DNA from: a virus
Direction: 5' to 3' (one strand)
Length of the DNA stretch: 64,000 bases
IMG/VR virus record: IMGVR_UViG_3300033802_000281
Part shown: positions 5,243 to 63,428 of the stretch, piece by piece
How positions within the stretch are numbered: position 1 is the stretch's first letter
Layout: every line of letters begins with the position of its first letter
Position numbers and translations under genes: made by a program
The notes under the pieces: model-generated
Database searches by the model: none
The model's input: only the letters and a program-made list of their open reading frames with translations
What the model was told of the DNA's origin: nothing

Positions 5243-5998
5243 TTAACTAGCCTCCTTATTGTTTTTTTTTAGATATGTCTCGACTTCTTTAATATATTTT
5301 CCAACAGTTTGTCTATTAAGTCCGTACATTTCTGCTATCTGAATTCGAGTTAATTTATCTTTCTTGTTTAACTCATACATTTTAAGTTTTTCATCGAAAG
5401 TGAAATACTTTCCAGGGAAGCGAGCTTTTATCATATTTTCCACATGCTCTTTACTTTGCTTTCTTCCAGTTAATGCTCTTCTCATATTCTCAATATGTTG
5501 CGGTGACAATCCACCATAATTTACATTATTTTTACCCTTGCGCAATTCACTTAATTTCTTTCTTGTCTCTTCACTATGTTTAAATCCTTTTAATTTTTTC
5601 CTGATTTTTTCACGATGTTCTAAAGTTATAACCTTACCTTTGTTTGACTCGCTAATTTTTCTTTTAACTTCTTCTGGCCATTCAAAATTATCATATCCAC
5701 CGTGTCGATTATTGAAACCATGTTGCAATGAATCATAGTAGTCAATATAGTATTTTTCTTTTTCATCAAGTTCTTCTATTGAACAGTATTCTAACACTTC
5801 AAATTTAAAGTAATTTTCACCATGTTTATTATAAGAATTCTGAAGATGTTTATTTGGATGACAATTGTATTTTAACCATCTTTTATGAGTTTCTAATCTC
5901 ATGTTTACATTCTTACTTACACCGATATAACACTTTCCATTTGCTGTATTTGTTATCTTATATACACCACTGACAATAGGAGTCGCCGGAACTGGCAT
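5243..5998 (-). CDS. Free-standing GIY-YIG homing endonuclease with NUMOD3 repeats and C-terminal HTH
   Basis: SGVYKITNTANGKCYIGVS...R...E; HSEETRKKLSE NUMOD3-type repeats; RBS GAGGTG before ATG 5998. Confidence 0.9.
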   Translation of the reverse strand: MPVPATPIVSGVYKITNTANGKCYIGVSKNVNMRLETHKRWLKYNCHPNKHLQNSYNKHGENYFKFEVLEYCSIEELDEKEKYYIDYYDSLQHGFNNRHGGYDNFEWPEEVKRKISESNKGKVITLEHREKIRKKLKGFKHSEETRKKLSELRKGKNNVNYGGLSPQHIENMRRALTGRKQSKEHVENMIKARFPGKYFTFDEKLKMYELNKKDKLTRIQIAEMYGLNRQTVGKYIKEVETYLKKNNKEAS

Positions 5999-6012: not shown

Positions 6013-8541
6013 TTAAACAGCATCAGCCTTAACTTTAATATCAAAAGTACCTCCGCCGACTTTATCTTTATCTGTTGTTAAACGCACATAAAATTCTATT
6101 ACTTCATCAAAACCAAGAACCTGATCATAGAAAAGCTCATTTTCAGCTATAAACGGCATATTAGATTTACTTATCTCTACGGTTAGTCCATCTATATTAT
6201 GTTCAGGATAGATCCTTATATTTTTTACATCAAATGGGAAAGTATTTGTTAAATACACTTTGGTGTCCAAAGATGTTTGACCTGAAATCAATGTTCCAAA
6301 ATCGAGATATTTTAACACTCCACCAAATGAAGTAGAATAATATTGTTGAGATTCATCCATAAACATTAAACCAGAATATTTTTTGTCTAGTTCATCAATA
6401 ATAATTTTTAAAGAGGAAATTTTTGGAGAAGATATCGCTAGTTTCTCCGTCATTGTTAAAAGATCAAGGTTTAAAATATCGTCAATTGAATCTAGTTCTA
6501 AATAAAATCCAAAACGCATTTGATTAAAATTTCCCAATAAACTTAATTCTATTTGAGATAATTGATTTAACTCTTCCACTTCCATTCCATTATTTTTAAC
6601 ATCATTTAGATTATTTATATTGACGTTTTTCCAACTTCCATCTATAAAGGAATAAGATTTCCATGACTGTCCTTTATCTATTGACAAAATAATTTTAGCA
6701 TCCGAATTATAAGATTTATTGCAAGATAAAAATAAATTATCTATACTATCAACAATAATATCTTTAGAAGAAATAATAACTTGAGGATTCGGTATAGCAT
6801 TTATTTTTAATACGTCAAAAAGATCATTAGAAGACCACAATAATACATCAATATTATTTGATTCTAATTCATAAATAATATGCTCTCCAAACGAATTTGT
6901 TGCATTAAATTCACTGACACTCATCCCATAATTGTCAAACATATCTTTAGTTAAGGTTCCAGTTCCAATAATTATCCAACCTAATTCTGGATCGTATGTC
7001 TTATATTTACCATCGTCATCAATTAAATATTTTAATTTAGTTTGAGCTTGATAAAATTCAATCTCCGATAAGCAAGACCCCCAACTTCCGTTTCTAGTTA
7101 ACACAAAACGAACATACCGATTCGTTATATTCACATTGTGAGTTCTAACGGTTCCATAAGGAGTTGAACTATTATGAGTATTTGTTACCCAAGGCACAAT
7201 TTCAGTAAAATTGATATTGTCATCAGAAACTAAAATTTGATAGTTTGATGAAGCATCATCTCTACATCTAGGCCATACTTTTATCTGATTTATAAATATT
7301 GGAGATATTGCCTCAAAATCAAATGTTAAAGTTTGATTTCCGCTTGAATCAGTTAACCAATAAGTTGTAAACTCACTATGAGACATTGTTATAGTTTCAT
7401 TAAATAAGTATCTCATATAATAATACGTAGTATTACTATAAACAGGTGCGGAACTAGTTACAACAACTCCATTAGTTGCAGTATATACTTTCTGTCCACT
7501 AGTACCACCAGTACCAGTAGATAAATCGATTTTTTCAGGAACTGCATAATATATTTTCTGTATTTTTTTAAAATTATTTTTTTCAATATTAATTCTATAT
7601 AATTTTCCATTATCAATATTCATAGGTTCTAGAGTTAAATCATAAGATGTTTTTAGTTTTAGTTGTCCATCAAAATCTACAAAATCATTTTCCAAAAAAT
7701 TTAATCTATCTGCTTGATCAAAACTATAAATTGTTCTTTTATTCTCCACAAATTTACCTATTAGCTCTACTTTTATTTTAATATATCTTCCTTGCGGAGA
7801 TGTAATATTTCCATTTTCATCAATTAACGACCAATCCGAATAATTAACTTGATCGTTTGATGTAGATGTATATATCTTAATGTCTGTCCCTTGAGGAATC
7901 TCTTTAATTGCAGTAATATATTTTATTTCATGGAAATAAAATCCTAAATCAATTGGCCCATATTCTGCTATCCCCATTTTTGTAAATATAGGTGTGTTTA
8001 TATCTTCATAAAGCTCAAATTCATTAATTCTAGGATAGCTAACAAAAGTATTTGTTATAACTAATCGGTAATATCTATATAATGTATCATTCTCAACAAA
8101 AAAACTTCTTTTTTCGCCGGAATTCCAAGGAGAAGTATTTGTAACTGTATGAAGAGTAATCCAATTAGTTTCATCATTACTTGCTTCAAAATTCCAGCTA
8201 AGAGCATCATCTGAAGTTATCGCGTATTTTTTTACTATTTTTTGCTGACCGATATCTATTTTTATCCATTGAGGTGGATAGTTTCGACTCCTCCATTGAG
8301 TTGATAAATTCCTATCAAAAGCTCTATATGGATAATCATAAGAAGTATATATTGAACTCGCAGTAGCAACAAATGGACTTGGCGAAATATCTGATGTCAT
8401 TTCTGGAATAAGACTTTCATCTGAAACAACAGTCCCATTACGAATTACTCTTAGTTGTAATTTATTATCTAAAACATCTGTATCAATCAATATGCCTGAA
8501 GTTAAATTAACATTTTTTTGATTCTCTATAATAACTGCCAT
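6013..8541 (-). CDS. Tail protein with two discoidin (F5/8C)-like domains
   Basis: ASSIY..YPYRAFD...QWIKID...YRYYRLVI and a second RYVRFVL domain; C-terminal domain shared with 1603..4020; ATG 8541 follows an RBS. Confidence 0.7.
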   Translation of the reverse strand: MAVIIENQKNVNLTSGILIDTDVLDNKLQLRVIRNGTVVSDESLIPEMTSDISPSPFVATASSIYTSYDYPYRAFDRNLSTQWRSRNYPPQWIKIDIGQQKIVKKYAITSDDALSWNFEASNDETNWITLHTVTNTSPWNSGEKRSFFVENDTLYRYYRLVITNTFVSYPRINEFELYEDINTPIFTKMGIAEYGPIDLGFYFHEIKYITAIKEIPQGTDIKIYTSTSNDQVNYSDWSLIDENGNITSPQGRYIKIKVELIGKFVENKRTIYSFDQADRLNFLENDFVDFDGQLKLKTSYDLTLEPMNIDNGKLYRINIEKNNFKKIQKIYYAVPEKIDLSTGTGGTSGQKVYTATNGVVVTSSAPVYSNTTYYYMRYLFNETITMSHSEFTTYWLTDSSGNQTLTFDFEAISPIFINQIKVWPRCRDDASSNYQILVSDDNINFTEIVPWVTNTHNSSTPYGTVRTHNVNITNRYVRFVLTRNGSWGSCLSEIEFYQAQTKLKYLIDDDGKYKTYDPELGWIIIGTGTLTKDMFDNYGMSVSEFNATNSFGEHIIYELESNNIDVLLWSSNDLFDVLKINAIPNPQVIISSKDIIVDSIDNLFLSCNKSYNSDAKIILSIDKGQSWKSYSFIDGSWKNVNINNLNDVKNNGMEVEELNQLSQIELSLLGNFNQMRFGFYLELDSIDDILNLDLLTMTEKLAISSPKISSLKIIIDELDKKYSGLMFMDESQQYYSTSFGGVLKYLDFGTLISGQTSLDTKVYLTNTFPFDVKNIRIYPEHNIDGLTVEISKSNMPFIAENELFYDQVLGFDEVIEFYVRLTTDKDKVGGGTFDIKVKADAV

Positions 8542-48726: not shown

Positions 48727-51318
48727 TTAAAATTGTCCACGTTTTTTCCTATATTCACGCTCTTTTATGGATTTATACTGTTTACGAACGTCTTTTTTAC
48801 AATCATCACAATACTTTTGGTTCTTTCCTTTAACTAAAGTTCTTTTTCCGCAGTTCATACAAACAACTTGATTTTTATAATGTATATCCAAATTGTTCTT
48901 TAAATTTTCAACAATAATATCACCAAAACATTCCCAAAGAGTTGTTTTATAACTTGATCTCTTATTTTTATATAAGTATTTAATAATTACGTCTGTAACA
49001 AAATAAAGATCTCTGTTACCTACAATTTCATTTTTGATATTCTGATAAAGAAATAATATATTATTATGTTTTTCAATTGGATTTATTAAAAATCTTCGTT
49101 TTAAATCTAATTTTTCATATCTATCAATTATTTCATAATCAATTTCTACATTGTTATTTTTCATAAGCATTTTATAATCAAATTTCCCCAAAGTTTTTAA
49201 ATTAAATCTAATTTGATAATTAGGAATTATTTTTTCCAGCCTATTTACTACACTATTATTGATTGGTTCAACACTTTTTTTCTCATAATCTTTTGCATAA
49301 ATAAAGAAATAAGGGACTTTTTTGTTAATTAATTTATTTATTCTTTTATTGATTTTCTTTGGTCGTATAGGCTTATAAAGCGTTTTTGCATAATCAATGA
49401 CAAAATTATTCTCCATGCAAAGCCACTTTATCACATCAAGATCAATATCATCACCATTCCAAATTTTTGTGATATTATTGCTTATAACTCCTATATTGCC
49501 TCCAGTATATGCAGCTATTAATCCATGATAAATTGCTTCGTTTGAAATCTGTTCTGCTCCGGCTTTTGCCATTTCATATTGTAAAGGCACAATGTCTTTC
49601 ATATTTCTTTCTGCTACTTCAATTAGAGTTGGATCTGATACTACAAGTGCTTTGTCTCCATCTTGGTCAAACATAAGAATTTTACTAATAGGGTCATGAC
49701 AACTTGTATATAATCCCTTTGTGATAAACCATTTTTTAGTTTCATTATTGATTTTATTAACCCTAATTGCATGTTCTCGATACAAATGCGGACTTCTTAA
49801 GCAATCGAGTTTATAATAACTTTTAAATAATTCACAAGACACTTCACCATTATTTAATAATCCGATAGGATTTTTGTTTTCTAAAAATAAGAATTCACAA
49901 AAAGCATAAAGATCGGGGATGATAAAAGTATATTTGCCGTGTATGTCAAGTTTACCCGCTCTTGCTTCTTTTATTAAGCTTTTCTTTACATCTTTTAAAA
50001 TTTGCTTACTATACGTATCATGTAAGAGTTCAGGATATATTTCTAAAGCTTTTTGTAAATAATTCTTATTTTTATTTGACGGTTTTACTCCTAAAATTTT
50101 TAGCATCGTTCCAATATCTTTTGTTAAATTAATTATATTTTGTTTTGTAATGTAGCTTATCTTTTCTAATTCTTGATCACTAAAATCAATAAGTGTTTGA
50201 AGCATTTGATAATTAATCTTCGCATAATCAATTTGATCTTCTTCTTCATTACATATTCCAGCTTGACAATTAAATTGAACAAAGTAATTTTTATATTCAT
50301 CCCAAGAAGAGTAATATTTCCACATTTTAAATTGGCTTTTAGTAAAAATAATTTCAATCTCGTCTTCTAGGATATCATATTCTTTCCCATAAATGTCTTT
50401 TATAACTCCTATACTTTTGTCCTTTAATTCTTTTCTTTTTTCTTTGATAAACCTATCAAAAGGGAAAGGTACAAGTAACCCTTTAATCCAAGGCATCCTA
50501 ATCATAAAGCTTTTCTTAGAGAGGGATGGTAGAATCATTCCACAACCATCCGTGTGATTAATAAGAATATCCATATCTTTTCTAGTTATTTCATATGTTT
50601 TTTCATCAATAAAATCGACTAAACTACGAATAGTCGTTTCCATATCATCGACAATAATAGTTTTATGAATCGGAAAGTTAACCCATTGATCTGTTGCACT
50701 ATTACAAAGTGCTAAATAGGCAAGAAATTTATTTATATTTACTCCGCCTAATTCATTAATTTTTTCAGTTGTTAATCCACACATTAAAGATTGTTGATGC
50801 TTTTTATATACAGATTCCTTAATAAAAACTGTTTTTTTCGTTCGGATTTGCCCTGCCGAAGCAGTAAAACAAATATATTTTTCACCATTATGTATAAATC
50901 CATGTAAAATAATATCTTTTAATACATCAAAGAAGTAAGTCTGTATTACAAATAGATCTTCAGTTAATTCTCCTTCTTTAATACCTAATGTACGTGTTAA
51001 AGTTGATTCAAAAAGAGAAATAATATTTTTTTTATTCAAAGATTTAGGATCTAGTTTTCTAATTCCTTTATGTTTTTTAAATATATTGTACAAAACATTT
51101 TTAAGTGTTTTGATTTTTTTATTAAGTAAACGATATTCACTTTTCAAATCATTTAATTCTGTAATATTATCACATTTTACAATCTTAGATTTAATAACAT
51201 TCTTTTCGATATGTATTTTTGATAATTGTTCGTGTATTTCTTTTTCTTCATCGGTATAAAAAGCATCGGTCGAAATACTGTAAAGATGAACTTGTTTGTC
51301 TAGGCTGATTTTTATCAC
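48727..51318 (-). CDS. yonO: YonO-type single-subunit (RdRP-related) phage DNA-dependent RNA polymerase
   Basis: TASAGQIR, HTDGCGMI, RSPHL, catalytic FDQDGD; upstream of late operon as in SPbeta. Confidence 0.9.
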   Translation of the reverse strand: MIKISLDKQVHLYSISTDAFYTDEEKEIHEQLSKIHIEKNVIKSKIVKCDNITELNDLKSEYRLLNKKIKTLKNVLYNIFKKHKGIRKLDPKSLNKKNIISLFESTLTRTLGIKEGELTEDLFVIQTYFFDVLKDIILHGFIHNGEKYICFTASAGQIRTKKTVFIKESVYKKHQQSLMCGLTTEKINELGGVNINKFLAYLALCNSATDQWVNFPIHKTIIVDDMETTIRSLVDFIDEKTYEITRKDMDILINHTDGCGMILPSLSKKSFMIRMPWIKGLLVPFPFDRFIKEKRKELKDKSIGVIKDIYGKEYDILEDEIEIIFTKSQFKMWKYYSSWDEYKNYFVQFNCQAGICNEEEDQIDYAKINYQMLQTLIDFSDQELEKISYITKQNIINLTKDIGTMLKILGVKPSNKNKNYLQKALEIYPELLHDTYSKQILKDVKKSLIKEARAGKLDIHGKYTFIIPDLYAFCEFLFLENKNPIGLLNNGEVSCELFKSYYKLDCLRSPHLYREHAIRVNKINNETKKWFITKGLYTSCHDPISKILMFDQDGDKALVVSDPTLIEVAERNMKDIVPLQYEMAKAGAEQISNEAIYHGLIAAYTGGNIGVISNNITKIWNGDDIDLDVIKWLCMENNFVIDYAKTLYKPIRPKKINKRINKLINKKVPYFFIYAKDYEKKSVEPINNSVVNRLEKIIPNYQIRFNLKTLGKFDYKMLMKNNNVEIDYEIIDRYEKLDLKRRFLINPIEKHNNILFLYQNIKNEIVGNRDLYFVTDVIIKYLYKNKRSSYKTTLWECFGDIIVENLKNNLDIHYKNQVVCMNCGKRTLVKGKNQKYCDDCKKDVRKQYKSIKEREYRKKRGQF

Positions 51319-59174: not shown

Positions 59175-59816
59175 ATGAAAAAAGTAAAATTGCAATACGA
59201 GAACATACATATAACAGAATCCGGCGTTAGATATTGGGACATTGGGCAGGAGATGGAACTGATTTATATTATCGAGACAACACGAAACGATGAAGACGTA
59301 AAAAATGATTATTCTAACATTATCCAAAAGGAATGTCATTCACTTAATGAATTATTTAAAATCTTTAACGAGTGGCAAAAAGCAGGTTATAAAAATATTC
59401 AAATTGTAACTAACGTCAAGCATAACAACGAAACAATTATAGAAGACGTTTCGGAATGTCTGGAATTGTCTGTTAACAGCGCAGAAATGAATAATCTAAA
59501 AGATGATAGCAAACAGTTACAAAAAACCAGAGAACAAGTCGCAACATATGACGGATTTATAAAGCATTACAAAGCAGAAAAGGCATTCGAAAAGTATTTG
59601 AAAGAAAGAAATGCGGAAAAGAATAAAGATCAAAACGGTTTATATTGGTACGAAATGCGTTTACGTCCATTATCCATTGGAAGCCAGCCGAACGGATTTA
59701 TACAGATAGACGACACAAAAGGCAGACACGGCATTATAGCATATAACAGGCCGTTGACGCAAAATGAAATAAACGAATATGATTTAAGTTTATGGGAAAT
59801 AACATCAATAATATAA
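59175..59816 (+). CDS. Protein with C-terminal DarA_C-like (defence-against-restriction) domain
   Basis: YWYEMRLRPLSIGSQPNGF...GRHGIIAYNRPLT..EINEYDL. Confidence 0.6.
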   Translation: MKKVKLQYENIHITESGVRYWDIGQEMELIYIIETTRNDEDVKNDYSNIIQKECHSLNELFKIFNEWQKAGYKNIQIVTNVKHNNETIIEDVSECLELSVNSAEMNNLKDDSKQLQKTREQVATYDGFIKHYKAEKAFEKYLKERNAEKNKDQNGLYWYEMRLRPLSIGSQPNGFIQIDDTKGRHGIIAYNRPLTQNEINEYDLSLWEITSII

Positions 59817-59840
59817 TATTAATATTGGAGGCATAACATA

Positions 59841-59889
59841 GTGCAAGCCGAGGCCGCCCCGAGAAATCGAGGCGCGGCGCTCAACCTGT
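59841..59889 (+). ncRNA. 3' half of a split twister-sister-like ribozyme
   Basis: GTGCAAGC-CGAGGC-hairpin-CGGCGCTC^AACCTG; lacks the GCAGGGCTAGGCC 5' strand locally. Confidence 0.7.
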
Positions 59890-59922
59890 AATGCAGGAAT
59901 TATCAAAGGAGGATTGATTAAC

Positions 59923-60138
59923 ATGACGAAAACTCGCCGCATCGTTGCTCAAATCATCCATGCGCTCCGTCGTTACGACATCCCGTATATCGTCCACGAC
60001 GAAGCACTCCGTCACGGGATCGCACCATCCGTCGTCATCATGACCGACTGGCATATCATCGTCATTGACGGTTTGCATGTGACCATCGATGACAAGCCTG
60101 TCCGCTCTATCCAATCGCTTATTGATGCTGTCGCTTGA
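59923..60138 (+). CDS. Early hypothetical protein
   Basis: AAAGGAGG RBS after the ribozyme half. Confidence 0.7.
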   Translation: MTKTRRIVAQIIHALRRYDIPYIVHDEALRHGIAPSVVIMTDWHIIVIDGLHVTIDDKPVRSIQSLIDAVA

Positions 60139-60177
60139 TAGCGTCATAAAAATAAAATATAAAGGAGAGTGTAACAA

Positions 60178-60471
60178 ATGTCCATCACGAAAGCAAATCA
60201 AATCATGGCATGCGCCCGTGGCGCATGGCAACGAGAAATTGCGTATCGTCTTGCTAGCGGCGACGCGATCCAGTCCCCGCATAACACGCTGCGCGGCGCG
60301 GCCAAAAACTACCAAATTCGTTACGCCGCCAGCTTCCGAAATCTTGTCCGCCGCATCGAAGCCGCAGGCTTTCGCGTCGTCCGCACTCCGGGTGTTCGCG
60401 GCGGCGAATACAGCGCTACCTATCGCGTATATCCCGCTACAGGGGCGATGGTCGCGGGAAGTCGCAAATAA
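60178..60471 (+). CDS. Early hypothetical protein (GC-rich)
   Basis: AAGGAG RBS; 97 aa. Confidence 0.7.
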   Translation: MSITKANQIMACARGAWQREIAYRLASGDAIQSPHNTLRGAAKNYQIRYAASFRNLVRRIEAAGFRVVRTPGVRGGEYSATYRVYPATGAMVAGSRK

Positions 60472-60518
60472 AACACAACAACAAAATAAAAATAAAAAAT
60501 GCAAAGGAGAACATAAAC

Positions 60519-61046
60519 ATGGAAATGAGAATCTATGTTGCAAATCTGGCCGCATACAATGCAGGCTTTCTTGTTGGCGAATGGATCGACCTTCCGCTTG
60601 AAAAAGATGAACTGTGGTCACGTATTCAAAAAATTCTTGACAAATGGAACGATGGATGCAGACCTTCAGAAGAATGGGCAATTCATGATTATGAAGGATT
60701 TCCGTTTGAAGTTAGTGAATATAGCAATGTTGACAAACTGAATAAGATTGCAGAAACGCTTAACAATCTTAATGAAGACGAAGACGTAATTAAGGCTGTC
60801 TTTGATCTCCTCAACCGTGACGAAGCACTTGAAAAGCTCCAAAATGGAGAATACCGCGTTTATGATGACTGTGACAGCATGGGTGACGTTGCTTATCAAT
60901 TGTATGAGGAATCCGGCAGACTTGCGGAGATTGAAAAAGTTATATCTTCATCCTACATTGATTGGGAAGTAATCGGACGTGATATGGAAATTGAGGGAAC
61001 ATTTAAATACATCGGAAACAGCCGATTTGTTGAAATCATTGACTAA
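60519..61046 (+). CDS. ardA: Antirestriction protein ArdA (DNA mimic, type I RM inhibitor)
   Basis: RIYVANLAAYNAG.LVGEWIDLP...EEWAIHDYEG...SYIDWE.IGRDM; highly acidic. Confidence 0.92.
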   Translation: MEMRIYVANLAAYNAGFLVGEWIDLPLEKDELWSRIQKILDKWNDGCRPSEEWAIHDYEGFPFEVSEYSNVDKLNKIAETLNNLNEDEDVIKAVFDLLNRDEALEKLQNGEYRVYDDCDSMGDVAYQLYEESGRLAEIEKVISSSYIDWEVIGRDMEIEGTFKYIGNSRFVEIID

Positions 61047-61104
61047 ATACAATTTATAACATAGAAAACGAGCGAATTACAATTTAATAAGGAGGATAAC
61101 AGTT

Positions 61105-61440
61105 ATGAATAAATCAATTATTATAGACGTTTCGCCATATATTGCACAACAATGGGTTAAATATAATGGCGATTTAAATAAAAAACAATGGTTAAAAAAC
61201 AATGGTTTAAAAAATCAAGTCATCAATTATATTAAGTCTAAGCTTTGTAATCATAATTTCTACACTTTACATGATGCTACATATCGATTTAAAATATTTG
61301 ATAGTCAAATACAAGATGTTATTATTAACATTAAATGGAGTGGTAAAGAGAACATAGAAATATGGAAAAATCAAGTACAAGAAGACTATATATCTATTTG
61401 TAGTATTTTCGCTGGAAGGTTTATTGTAACTAAAAAATGA
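61105..61440 (+). CDS. Early hypothetical protein (AT-rich)
   Basis: AAGGAGG RBS. Confidence 0.65.
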   Translation: MNKSIIIDVSPYIAQQWVKYNGDLNKKQWLKNNGLKNQVINYIKSKLCNHNFYTLHDATYRFKIFDSQIQDVIINIKWSGKENIEIWKNQVQEDYISICSIFAGRFIVTKK

Positions 61441-61449
61441 TTATTAAGT

Positions 61450-61477
61450 GCAGGGCTAGGCCCAGCCTTGTGAAACC
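61450..61477 (+). ncRNA. 5' half of a split twister-sister-like ribozyme
   Basis: GCAGGGCTAGGCCCAGCCTTGTGAAACC; complementary to the half at 59841. Confidence 0.7.
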
Positions 61478-61533
61478 TATCCGCCAGACGGCGGTGATGG
61501 TCACGGGAGACCACAGAAATGGAGGGGATAACG

Positions 61534-61719
61534 GTGGAAGTAAAGCCCGGAATGATGGTATGGTCGGAAGTACTCGGAGCAAACGTTGAAGTGCTCCGGG
61601 TATATAAAAGCACAGCAACCGTCCGCGTATGGGGGCGCGGGCTCGCGGAAGGTAAACTTATGACCTTTCGGGGTCAACGACTCGACAGTTTACACCCCAA
61701 ACGGGAACAGCAGGGCTAG
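61534..61719 (+). CDS. Small early hypothetical protein
   Basis: GGAGGGG RBS, GTG start; stop TAG lies inside the ribozyme 5' strand. Confidence 0.65.
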   Translation: MEVKPGMMVWSEVLGANVEVLRVYKSTATVRVWGRGLAEGKLMTFRGQRLDSLHPKREQQG

Positions 61720-61779: not shown

Positions 61780-61818
61780 GATGATAGGGCAGGAAATTCA
61801 ATCGAAAGGATGATTTAC

Positions 61819-62157
61819 ATGAACATTGTGAACCTCACCCCGCATGACATCGTGGTGATCGCAGAAGACGGAACCGAATTCCGCCGCTATCCCGCATCGG
61901 GCACCATCGCCCGCGCCGCATCGATAACGGAGATCATCGGCGAGCTGGACGGAGTTCCCGTCGCCCGACAGCAGTTCGGTGAAGTCTCCGACCTGCCCGA
62001 TCCCGAGCCGGGCACCGTCTATCTCGTCTCGCTGGTGGTCGGACAGGCTCTGAAGGGTCAGCGGAACGATCTCTACGGCGCGGACACGTCGCCGGAAGGT
62101 GCTATACGGGACGCGGAGGGGCGGATCGTCGGCACCCGGCGGCTGGTGAAATATTGA
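61819..62157 (+). CDS. Phage hypothetical protein (NLTPH motif family), GC-rich
   Basis: IVNLTPHDI...LPDPEPGTVYLVS...IRDAEGRIVG. Confidence 0.75.
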   Translation: MNIVNLTPHDIVVIAEDGTEFRRYPASGTIARAASITEIIGELDGVPVARQQFGEVSDLPDPEPGTVYLVSLVVGQALKGQRNDLYGADTSPEGAIRDAEGRIVGTRRLVKY

Positions 62158-62169
62158 GGAGGTATTTCT

Positions 62170-62349
62170 GTGGACAGAATGAAATTCTTCTCTTCCTATC
62201 CCACGCACGAAGCACGTGATGAAGTGATGACGTGGTTTGGGTACGAGAACATCGAACGTTGCCGTTACGTGGATCACTCCAACGGGTATACGGATGTATA
62301 CATTCCCGGCGATCTGGCCGAAATATGGGATCGCTGGGCGCAGGGCTAG
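62170..62349 (+). CDS. Small early hypothetical protein (59 aa; below ORF-track cutoff)
   Basis: GAGGAGG RBS, GTG start, ends CAG GGC TAG inside the ribozyme. Confidence 0.65.
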   Translation: MDRMKFFSSYPTHEARDEVMTWFGYENIERCRYVDHSNGYTDVYIPGDLAEIWDRWAQG

Positions 62350-62404
62350 GGAGTGCGCCGAGAATCCCGGCGCGGGCGCGTCTAGCGCCCTCCGCTCAAC
62401 CTGT
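62340..62404 (+). ncRNA. Twister-sister-like ribozyme variant
   Basis: GCAGG-GCTAG-GGA...TCC-GCTC^AA-CCTGT with two internal hairpins; compensatory P2 change; loop AGAATCC. Confidence 0.7.
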
Positions 62405-62439
62405 GAAAGCAGGAAATATTTAAAAGGAGGATGATGATC

Positions 62440-62670
62440 ATGAAAAAATGGTATGTTGACCAAACGTTTGTCCGCGAGGGCCGGGAGTACGACAGAGGCT
62501 ATTACATCCGCGAGGATGGCGTGATCGAGTGGGCGGAGCCGATTCCGAACGGGGAGGCATACGAATTCCCGATCAACGAATGCTTCCATCCTTCCGGGCC
62601 GCTGTCCAGCGAGCCGGGAGATCCGATCAGTGTCGAGGATGGAGAACTGCTCGGGGAATTGGTAGAGTAG
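62440..62670 (+). CDS. Small acidic early hypothetical protein
   Basis: AAAGGAGG RBS; stop abuts the next ribozyme. Confidence 0.7.
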   Translation: MKKWYVDQTFVREGREYDRGYYIREDGVIEWAEPIPNGEAYEFPINECFHPSGPLSSEPGDPISVEDGELLGELVE

Positions 62671-62738
62671 CAGGGCTAGGGAGACGCCGGAGAATCCCCG
62701 GCGAGCCGCTTATAACAGGCGGCTTCCGCTCAACTTGT
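62670..62738 (+). ncRNA. Twister-sister-like ribozyme variant
   Basis: GCAGG-GCTAG-GGA...TCC-GCTC^AA-CTTGT with two internal hairpins; loop AGAATCC. Confidence 0.7.
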
Positions 62739-62774
62739 GATAATGCAGGAATTATCAAAGGAGGATTGATTAAC

Positions 62775-63428
62775 ATGTTTGTATACCATAATGCAATTTG
62801 GACTGGAAAGAAGTGGAAAGATCAAATATATCTGGAACTCGAAAAAACGAGACGTGGCTTCTATGCCGCATGGGAGGCTGGAGGGGGCCATACCAATACA
62901 GGTTCGGCCCAACTCATAGCAAACGCCGACGGTTCAAAGAAAAAACCGATCTTCATCCCGAAACGCGGACCGAAATGCGGCGGACATGCGTTATTCGTGC
63001 TCGAAGTAAACGACATTATCATTAGTACATATCATCATCGCAAAAACTTCGAGCACTATGTCTATCGAGTCAAAAGAATACGGCCCCTTTCCAGGAGGTT
63101 TTGGGCCGACAAAGACGAGTTGAATTATCACACACCGTTCGAATTGGCGGTGTTCGACATCAAAGATAATATCGAGGAAGGGGAGATTCCTCGAAATATA
63201 TCACTTATGGACATCAATGTTTCCCTTACACACGAAGAAACAAACAGCGTTTGGATTAAATACGAAACCGGCGAAATGGTCGCCGATCTCGAAGTCTTAA
63301 ACTGGTTCCATGAAGGAAAATGGAAAAAAGGAGGTGAACCTAGTGGGCCCGTTGCAGATGCTATACGGGTCGCTACGAAAAAGGCTACCGATTTCCATTG
63401 TCGGAAGCCGTATTATTTCAAGCGCTGA
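62775..63428 (+). CDS. Early hypothetical protein
   Basis: True start ATG 62775 after AAAGGAGG; WEAGGGHTNTGSAQLIA...GHALF...HCRKPYY. Confidence 0.7.
   Translation: MFVYHNAIWTGKKWKDQIYLELEKTRRGFYAAWEAGGGHTNTGSAQLIANADGSKKKPIFIPKRGPKCGGHALFVLEVNDIIISTYHHRKNFEHYVYRVKRIRPLSRRFWADKDELNYHTPFELAVFDIKDNIEEGEIPRNISLMDINVSLTHEETNSVWIKYETGEMVADLEVLNWFHEGKWKKGGEPSGPVADAIRVATKKATDFHCRKPYYFKR

Follow-up and report, generated by a model that had tools for sequence, protein, structure and literature searches.

Prophages have been described in which arrays of hammerhead ribozymes flank single genes, ardA among them; a processing into single-gene mRNAs was proposed for these arrays, and cleavage was shown for three of them (Perreault et al. 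2011, PMC3088659). The twister-sister, pistol and hatchet ribozymes were discovered through such gene neighbourhoods, and circularly permuted ribozymes have been described for hammerhead types I-III and for twister P1, P3 and P5 (PMC10085705). Here we analyse a 64,000-nucleotide (nt) stretch of phage DNA, the IMG/VR record IMGVR_UViG_3300033802_000281, in which both parts of one twister-sister allele (TSx) are present in reverse order, the 3' part lying 1.6 kb upstream of the 5' part and four genes including ardA standing between them (Table 1). The whole stretch is referred to as the window, and coordinates are window positions unless they carry a locus prefix such as L004.

According to the original prediction, the two pieces either flank a circular four-gene cassette that integrated by a crossover within the ribozyme loop or form a permuted ribozyme that folds over a long distance and acts as a timer. 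The comparison with related contigs suggests that the pieces are probably recombination scars in an early, ribozyme-punctuated array of anti-restriction genes and not a working split ribozyme.

The two twister-sister pieces and their joints

Both pieces are present as originally described and derive from one twister-sister allele. Joined at their shared GTG they correspond in 67 of 68 positions to the intact ribozyme at L004:7897-7971, which scores 53.2 bits against the twister-sister model RF02681. The upstream piece (59841-59888) contains the whole SL4 loop (59841-59849), the P4 3' strand, the P5 hairpin, the P2 3' strand (59876-59878), the L1 3' strand with the would-be cut site C59882/A59883 and the P1 3' strand (59885-59888), the cut site being set by homology to C62-A63 of the crystal structure (PMC5660989). 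The downstream piece (61450-61472) contains the 5' strands of P1, L1 (with an in-ribozyme TAG), P2 and P4, followed by the GTG. Taken together, the pieces hold all conserved L1 and SL4 nucleotides as well as the C-A cleavage step (positions according to PMC5660989).

The complementarities between the pieces which had originally been pointed out (P1, CAGG/CCTG; P2, GCC/GGC; and P4) are real and greatly exceed what chance would give. They are inherited from the common ribozyme and are therefore no sign of selection. As expected for internally truncated elements, neither window piece is reported by Rfam at the gathering score or at E <= 10. Patterns specific for the 5' and the 3' part of the allele had no matches in viral_contigs, and a pattern for the intact TSx matched the L004 contig alone in metagenome_contigs.

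Relatives of the locus were fetched from JGI, ENA and Logan assemblies through exact-protein look-ups. The left junction was detected in 14 and the right junction in 12 of the fetched loci, which belong to several assemblies of all three sources, and Logan contigs of one further run bridge both junctions; many of the junction-bearing samples probably stem from one campaign. Two haplotypes are represented. Several JGI and Logan assemblies repeat the order seen in the window, and neither piece varies among the contigs of this window type. The second haplotype, found in L004 (a 36-kb JGI contig), in three ENA contigs and in one Logan contig, shares with the window the identical DarA_C gene, the left joint, the orphan 3' piece and gene A. 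Downstream of gene A, its gene B is shorter and its ardA has diverged; two other genes and the intact twister-sister ribozyme at L004:7897-7971 follow. L004 thus contains the 48-nt 3' part twice in identical form, as an orphan at 5916 and within the intact ribozyme at 7919, about 2 kb downstream. Since this haplotype combines the left joint with an intact downstream copy, the left joint exists without the right joint. The pair of an orphan 3' piece and an orphan 5' piece is confined to one haplotype, in which it shows no variation, and no conservation with helix co-variation is seen.

At the left joint a GGAGG (59827-59831) is followed 9 nt later by the GTG at 59841, as had been stated in the original prediction. 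This GTG represents the first three bases of the SL4 loop as well as the opening of a mini open reading frame (ORF) of 16 codons that ends at 59891. The mini-ORF crosses the ribozyme remnant and stops about 30 nt before the start of gene A; it may or may not be translated. The identical DarA_C protein was found in 11 contigs, and the left joint follows in 11 of 11. In a Paenibacillus vulneris prophage (L153) a DarA_C gene of 70% identity is followed at the same place by GGAGG, 9 nt and the ATG of an ordinary gene. Neither this prophage nor two DarA_C relatives of 40% identity (L002 and L003) showed synteny beyond the DarA_C gene.

At the right joint the 5' piece runs into the 3' part of a type-I hammerhead (61472-61514), of which GAAA, stem III, U16.1-C17 (61501-61502) and the stem I 3' strand survive, together with a pseudoknot tail that has decayed. 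The twister-sister 5' piece occupies the place of the CUGANGA strand and of stem II, and without these two parts the hammerhead relic is presumably dead. Positions 61472-61502 align end to end with the GAAAC-to-GUC segments of hammerheads, with a score of 28 that was attained by 0 of 300 shuffles (null score 15 +/- 2). Four of the 12 tail positions are off the family consensus, as expected for decay. A custom hammerhead covariance model (CM) gives this half-missing relic, at 61480-61514, a score of only 3.3 bits, and the identification of the relic rests on the alignment.

The gene downstream of the right joint, encoding 66 amino acids (aa), has homologues of 88-95% identity in other contexts. 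In L027 its orthologue is preceded by a complete hammerhead consisting of stem I, CUGANGA, stem II, GAAA, stem III, GUC, stem I and the conserved tail. A second chimera of a twister-sister 5' part and a hammerhead 3' part was detected before a member of the 66-aa gene family at L028:520-595 and also in L029-L033 (30 bits, partial). Its joint is located at the 3' edge of SL4, the twister-sister part spanning the whole SL4 loop, whereas the joint in the window is located at the 5' edge.

Origin of the pieces

The block bracketed by the two pieces is a patchwork and not one unit. Its GC content amounts to about 50-60% from 59841 to about 60465 and to 24-40% across ardA and orf4, and rises to about 55-65% from 61450. 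The switch from GC-rich to AT-rich DNA coincides with a third relic, a hammerhead with an internal deletion at 60433-60465, and with the divergence between the window and L004, the homology breakpoint being 60437. In this relic the core, stem II and half of stem III are deleted, so that the stem I 5' strand is directly followed by what is left of stem III (the loop and the 3' strand), then by GUC, the 3' strand of stem I and the tail. It aligns over 32 nt, near-identically, to the 3' part of the hammerhead L064:5699-5771. The relic also supplies the stop region of gene B; the sister haplotype keeps just the first 7 nt of the gene B hammerhead, and gene B ends there 10 codons earlier. The gene orf4 was found in window-type contexts only.

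The region presumably represents the early anti-restriction end of the phage, in which small genes are separated by self-cleaving ribozymes that are each followed by a leader composed of a hairpin and a ribosome-binding site (RBS). Twister-sister ribozymes, a twister-sister-like variant and, in relatives, type-I hammerheads make up the array and, by analogy to the published hammerhead arrays, they may cut a long transcript into single-gene mRNAs. Such an array would evolve through DNA recombination, with the surviving joints falling in the ribozyme-filled spacers.

The ancestor may have been a normal array in which one twister-sister allele stood twice, ahead of gene A and behind the ardA block. 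The presence of identical allele copies is plausible, given that the leader likewise occurs in two identical copies and that such copies would arise if a block were inserted Campbell-style by homology at a ribozyme. The segment 59841-59888 would be the remnant of a normal ribozyme-plus-leader unit before gene A. Since the same leader follows a whole ribozyme at 62670-62777, the orphan 3' piece and its leader correspond to the 3' portion of a standard unit. A deletion or replacement at the 3-nt GTG microhomology could have joined the backbone start codon to the SL4 loop of this first copy; the resulting left joint is common to both haplotypes. The segment 61450-61472 would be the remnant of the second copy of the same allele, which the sister haplotype keeps intact at the end of its ardA block. 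In the window lineage a later event may have fused this second copy, again within SL4, to the GAAA of the hammerhead that precedes the 66-aa gene, whereby the copy would have lost its 3' part. Cleavage is not expected of either piece or of the twister-sister/hammerhead chimera.

Several points weigh against this scenario. No intermediate haplotype was found, the arrangements sought being an intact TSx before gene A and an orf4 followed by an intact TSx. Furthermore, the two breaks are no more than 3 nt apart, in one and the same loop of a single allele. For two independent events in a ribozyme of about 70 nt this would be a coincidence of about 1 in 10; the closeness of the breaks may reflect such chance, a preferred breakpoint or the trace of a single reciprocal exchange, which would produce this very pattern. 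Finally, an assembly of the pieces is sterically conceivable, since all conserved ribozyme nucleotides are present across them, and predicted cofolding is not sufficient to exclude an assembly over a long range.

A single reciprocal crossover at the GTG in SL4, by which a circle with an intact ribozyme and the four genes integrated, would match the complementary breaks, where no ribozyme base is lost and only the GTG is shared, and the occurrence of the same allele on both sides. Direct repeats capable of forming circles do exist, namely the 37-nt leader, which is present twice, and the 48-nt repeat, which is present twice in L004, and the gene content between ribozymes varies among the haplotypes. 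Such an integration nevertheless seems unlikely. The empty site it predicts, searched as a 21-nt pattern, had 0 matches among the 241 million records of metagenome_contigs, and no other context of the left flank was found in viral_contigs. The flanks consist of an RBS with a start codon on one side and a hammerhead 3' part on the other; as the left flank is not the missing hammerhead 5' part, the flanks were never contiguous, and the target would itself have needed an earlier illegitimate fusion. L004 combines the left joint with an intact ribozyme and other genes, so that extra events re-creating the same allele would be required. Taking furthermore into account that the supposed cassette is a GC-rich/AT-rich mosaic with an internal hammerhead relic, and that no recombinase is tied to the site, what stands of this proposal are the DNA-level recombination joints in the SL4 loop, but not the integration of a four-gene circle into one site.

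Even less probable, indeed hardly credible, is a pairing of the pieces over 1.6 kb of mRNA or in trans into an active permuted twister-sister that would cut upstream of gene A after transcription of the full block. The conserved L1 and SL4 nucleotides and the P1, P2 and P4 strands required for it are all present, a nick at the P4/SL4 boundary leaves the loop whole, and the invariance of both pieces in all window-type contigs is in line with a function; their complementarity is inherited and not selected, however, and L004 keeps the identical orphan 3' piece although the partner strand there belongs to an intact ribozyme. Local hairpins compete with the pairing. For the downstream piece a hairpin of its own is predicted (-10.7 kcal/mol). 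In the upstream piece the leader hairpin takes up the P1 3' strand, CCTG (59885-59888) pairing with CAGG (59894-59897) in the minimum free energy fold. A two-strand cofold in context gains about 2 kcal/mol over the monomers without forming P1, P2 or P4, these values being secondary-structure energies only, in which tertiary contacts are ignored. Moreover, the pieces are separated by four translated ORFs, and the 5' piece continues into a hammerhead relic that is itself decaying. Among self-cleaving ribozymes, only hammerhead and twister are known to occur naturally in circularly permuted forms (PMC10085705). Cleavage by the pieces over a long range or in trans is thus not supported by the folding predictions, and in the absence of a conservation signal the proposed timer could not be upheld. 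A permuted order produced by the assembly of a mis-joined repeat is a negligible option. Although ribozyme repeats break short-read graphs, the 48-nt repeat, for example, lying at both ends of one Logan contig (L007), both joints are bridged in several JGI and Logan assemblies and in contigs from several samples, which excludes the misassembly that the original prediction had itself considered; the window-type pieces also share 3 nt only, far less than any k-mer size.

The scars described above are accompanied by more truncated units in the relatives, namely an orphan hammerhead 5' part (L026:2291), an orphan twister-sister 3' tail (L028, at about 775) and twister-sister 5' stubs (L028:818, L019:8268 and L019:9716). 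Eight truncated units break at varied places, which comprise the 5' edge and the 3' edge of SL4, L1, the position after P2, the position after the first hairpin and hammerhead stem II. As a rather speculative extension of the scar interpretation, ribozyme units might double as DNA-level exchange points, with blocks moving between phages, possibly as circles that integrate Campbell-style by homology at the ribozyme, and with hairpin loops (SL4 and the junction before the hammerhead GAAA) acting as preferred breakpoints. A movement of blocks via ribozyme homology would explain the identical TSx copies at both ends of the ardA block, and preferred breakpoints in loops would account for the recurrence of the same loop edges in three independent twister-sister breaks and in two hammerhead breaks.

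Neighbouring genes, ribozymes and phage context

The features of the region are listed in Table 1. A homologue search with gene A had gene A itself as its sole match. The only contiguous twister-sister that Rfam recognises in the window, TS-C, lies 240 nt downstream of the split pieces.

Table 1. Genes, ribozymes, ribozyme remnants and joints in the analysed region of the window.
Feature	Position	Strand	Basis or remark
DarA_C-domain gene, 213 aa; last AT-rich backbone gene before the left joint	59175..59816	+	Pfam PF18789, E 1.1e-10
Left joint: orphan RBS GGAGG, 9-nt spacer, GTG	59827..59843	+	sequence, translation
Orphan 3' part of twister-sister allele TSx	59841..59888	+	48/48 identical to the 3' part of the L004:7919 ribozyme and to the L004:5916 orphan
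Portable leader: 5' hairpin, strong RBS, ATG	59889..59925	+	37 nt, 100% identical to 62741-62777
Gene A, 71 aa, orphan, GC-rich	59923..60138	+	no Pfam or PHROG family
Gene B, 97 aa; last ~12 codons read from the hammerhead relic	60178..60471	+	
Internally deleted hammerhead relic	60433..60465	+	weak CM match, 16.2 bits; alignment
ardA anti-restriction gene, 175 aa	60519..61046	+	Pfam PF07275, E 2.1e-38
orf4, 111 aa, ~24% GC, orphan	61105..61440	+	
Orphan 5' part of TSx	61450..61472	+	22/23 identical to L004:7899-7921
3' part of type-I hammerhead fused to the twister-sister piece	61472..61514	+	alignment; 90% identity to L027 from 61500
66-aa gene, stop codon inside the next ribozyme	61519..61719	+	
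Intact twister-sister TS-C, predicted cut C61770/A61771	61708..61781	+	RF02681, 49.8 bits; sole contiguous Rfam twister-sister in the window
Twister-sister-like variant, not recognised by Rfam	62340..62403	+	
Second twister-sister-like variant, followed by the identical leader 62741-62777	62670..62737	+	

The twister-sister-like variant has unchanged P1 and L1 but a P2 of GGAG/CUCC. In place of the SL4 loop it carries a conserved loop of 9 nt, GAGAAUCCC, whose hairpin co-varies and is followed by a second co-varying hairpin. Six distinct copies share one common fold. The variant was not reported by Rfam even at E <= 10. It also occurs at L004:8518, L028:2492, L043 (minus strand) 908 and L058 (minus strand) 3255.

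The hammerhead family to which the relic at the right joint was compared was assembled by means of a 15-nt tail motif, which yielded 117 phage stretches, mostly chance matches; with L027 and L028 included, the set holds 37 distinct complete copies that can be aligned. The core nucleotides C3 U4 G5 A6 N7 G8 A9, G12 A13 A14, A15.1-U16.1 and C17 are present in 37 of these 37 copies, the definition of the type-I core, with H17, being that of PMC3088659. The RNAalifold consensus shows compensatory changes in 8 of 15 pairs, including all five of stem II and three of stem III, stem I being nearly invariant. Rfam hammerhead models reported nothing at the gathering score (11 loci) or at E <= 1, and the sole Rfam match of the family is a partial one of 15.2 bits to RF02276 over GAAAC, stem III and GUC. 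The assignment to type-I hammerheads is therefore based on the core and the co-variation and not on Rfam.

In most copies one or two additional nucleotides follow A9 ahead of stem II, and a subgroup carries an extra hairpin inserted there. The 3' tail does not vary and likely forms a pseudoknot with the stem II loop, to which it is complementary. Members of the family are located at L027:3990, L004:4888 and 7414, L028:55 and in about 40 IMG/VR loci (L039-L150).

Pistol ribozymes were detected at L002:9628-9693 and L003:9619-9684, about 3 kb downstream of the 40%-identical DarA_C genes of these two large phage contigs, and in L107 a pistol ribozyme lies beside hammerheads. The stub at L019:9716 was considered as a relative of the window chimera, but the likeness beyond the common 15 nt was not significant (252 of 500 shuffles reach the score). 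A 19-nt pattern for the joined loop had one match, in the unrelated phage L001 (IMGVR_UViG_3300047552_000971), which is about the chance expectation at that length, and the matched element is not a twister-sister. On the minus strand of L001, at about 1100-2000, several GC-rich structured elements lie among small genes, each directly after a stop codon. None of them is recognised by Rfam, and one has a hairpin with a stem and loop identical to twister-sister SL4.

The phage is temperate and SPbeta-like, with a probable host of the genus Paenibacillus. Its placement among the SPbeta-like phages follows from a match to the YonO-type RNA polymerase and from tail genes, represented by a YOMG_N/prophage tail protein. 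The polymerase-like protein (863 aa, 48730-51318, minus strand) has a Pfam match to eukaryotic-type RNA-dependent RNA polymerase, as in the YonO RNA polymerase of SPbeta. In L019 an integrase is encoded a few kb downstream of the last ribozyme stub in the array. No match was obtained when the region was compared with 50,697 phage records in near and distant BLAST searches, and the nearest virus record (G001) does not cover the region.

Sequencing runs were searched as Logan contigs, and contigs cannot show RNA ends. Two metatranscriptome runs contain short pieces of the region (60057-60254, 61815-62350 and 62408-62698) that end near ribozymes, and neither joint is covered by the RNA-library contigs of these two runs. 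In run X11 two RNA-library contigs (61876-62350 and 62408-62698) stop and start on the two sides of the variant ribozyme at 62340-62403; these contig ends are a weak hint that the transcript may be cut there.

Comparison with known systems

The locus is an ordinary, though unusually scar-rich, case of the known type of ribozyme-punctuated phage operon. It shows how such operons change over time, as whole ribozymes, orphan halves, an internally deleted hammerhead and chimeras of two ribozyme classes mark exactly the borders between the parts of a compositional mosaic with anti-restriction genes. A working permuted twister-sister would be new, but the evidence points to relics. The locus also serves as a warning that perfectly fitting ribozyme fragments can be the leftovers of two copies, complementarity alone being no sign of a split or permuted ribozyme. 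If loops were indeed preferred crossover points, self-cleaving ribozymes would gain a second, DNA-level role as module boundaries in the accessory regions of phages.

Compared with twister-sister (RF02681; PMC5660989), the pieces together carry the L1 and SL4 nucleotides as well as P1, P2, P4 and P5, whereas the element in the window is broken in SL4, its parts being arranged in reverse order 1.6 kb apart and each fused to unrelated sequence. The region resembles the prophage arrays of PMC3088659 in that several self-cleaving ribozymes are located between small prophage genes of varying identity, including ardA. It differs from them in its mixture of twister-sister, the twister-sister-like variant and, in relatives, hammerheads, and in its truncated and chimeric units, which are not described in that paper.

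With permuted and discontinuous ribozymes the pieces have in common that the same helices and core occur in another 5'-to-3' order or with long insertions. Discontinuous hammerheads in mammalian CLEC2 genes were reportedly described by Martick and colleagues in 2008. Ribozymes of these kinds are conserved among species, have the open helix closed with a short loop or a conserved insert, and cleave, whereas for the window pieces the sister haplotype argues against a need of this kind.

In integron cassettes attC is whole in the circle and is split between both ends of the inserted DNA on integration. The integration of a circle within the ribozyme loop would follow the same split-site logic. 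Unlike integron cassettes, however, the array has no adjacent dedicated integrase, no recurring core site at the cassette ends and no empty site, and its joints vary across the ribozymes.

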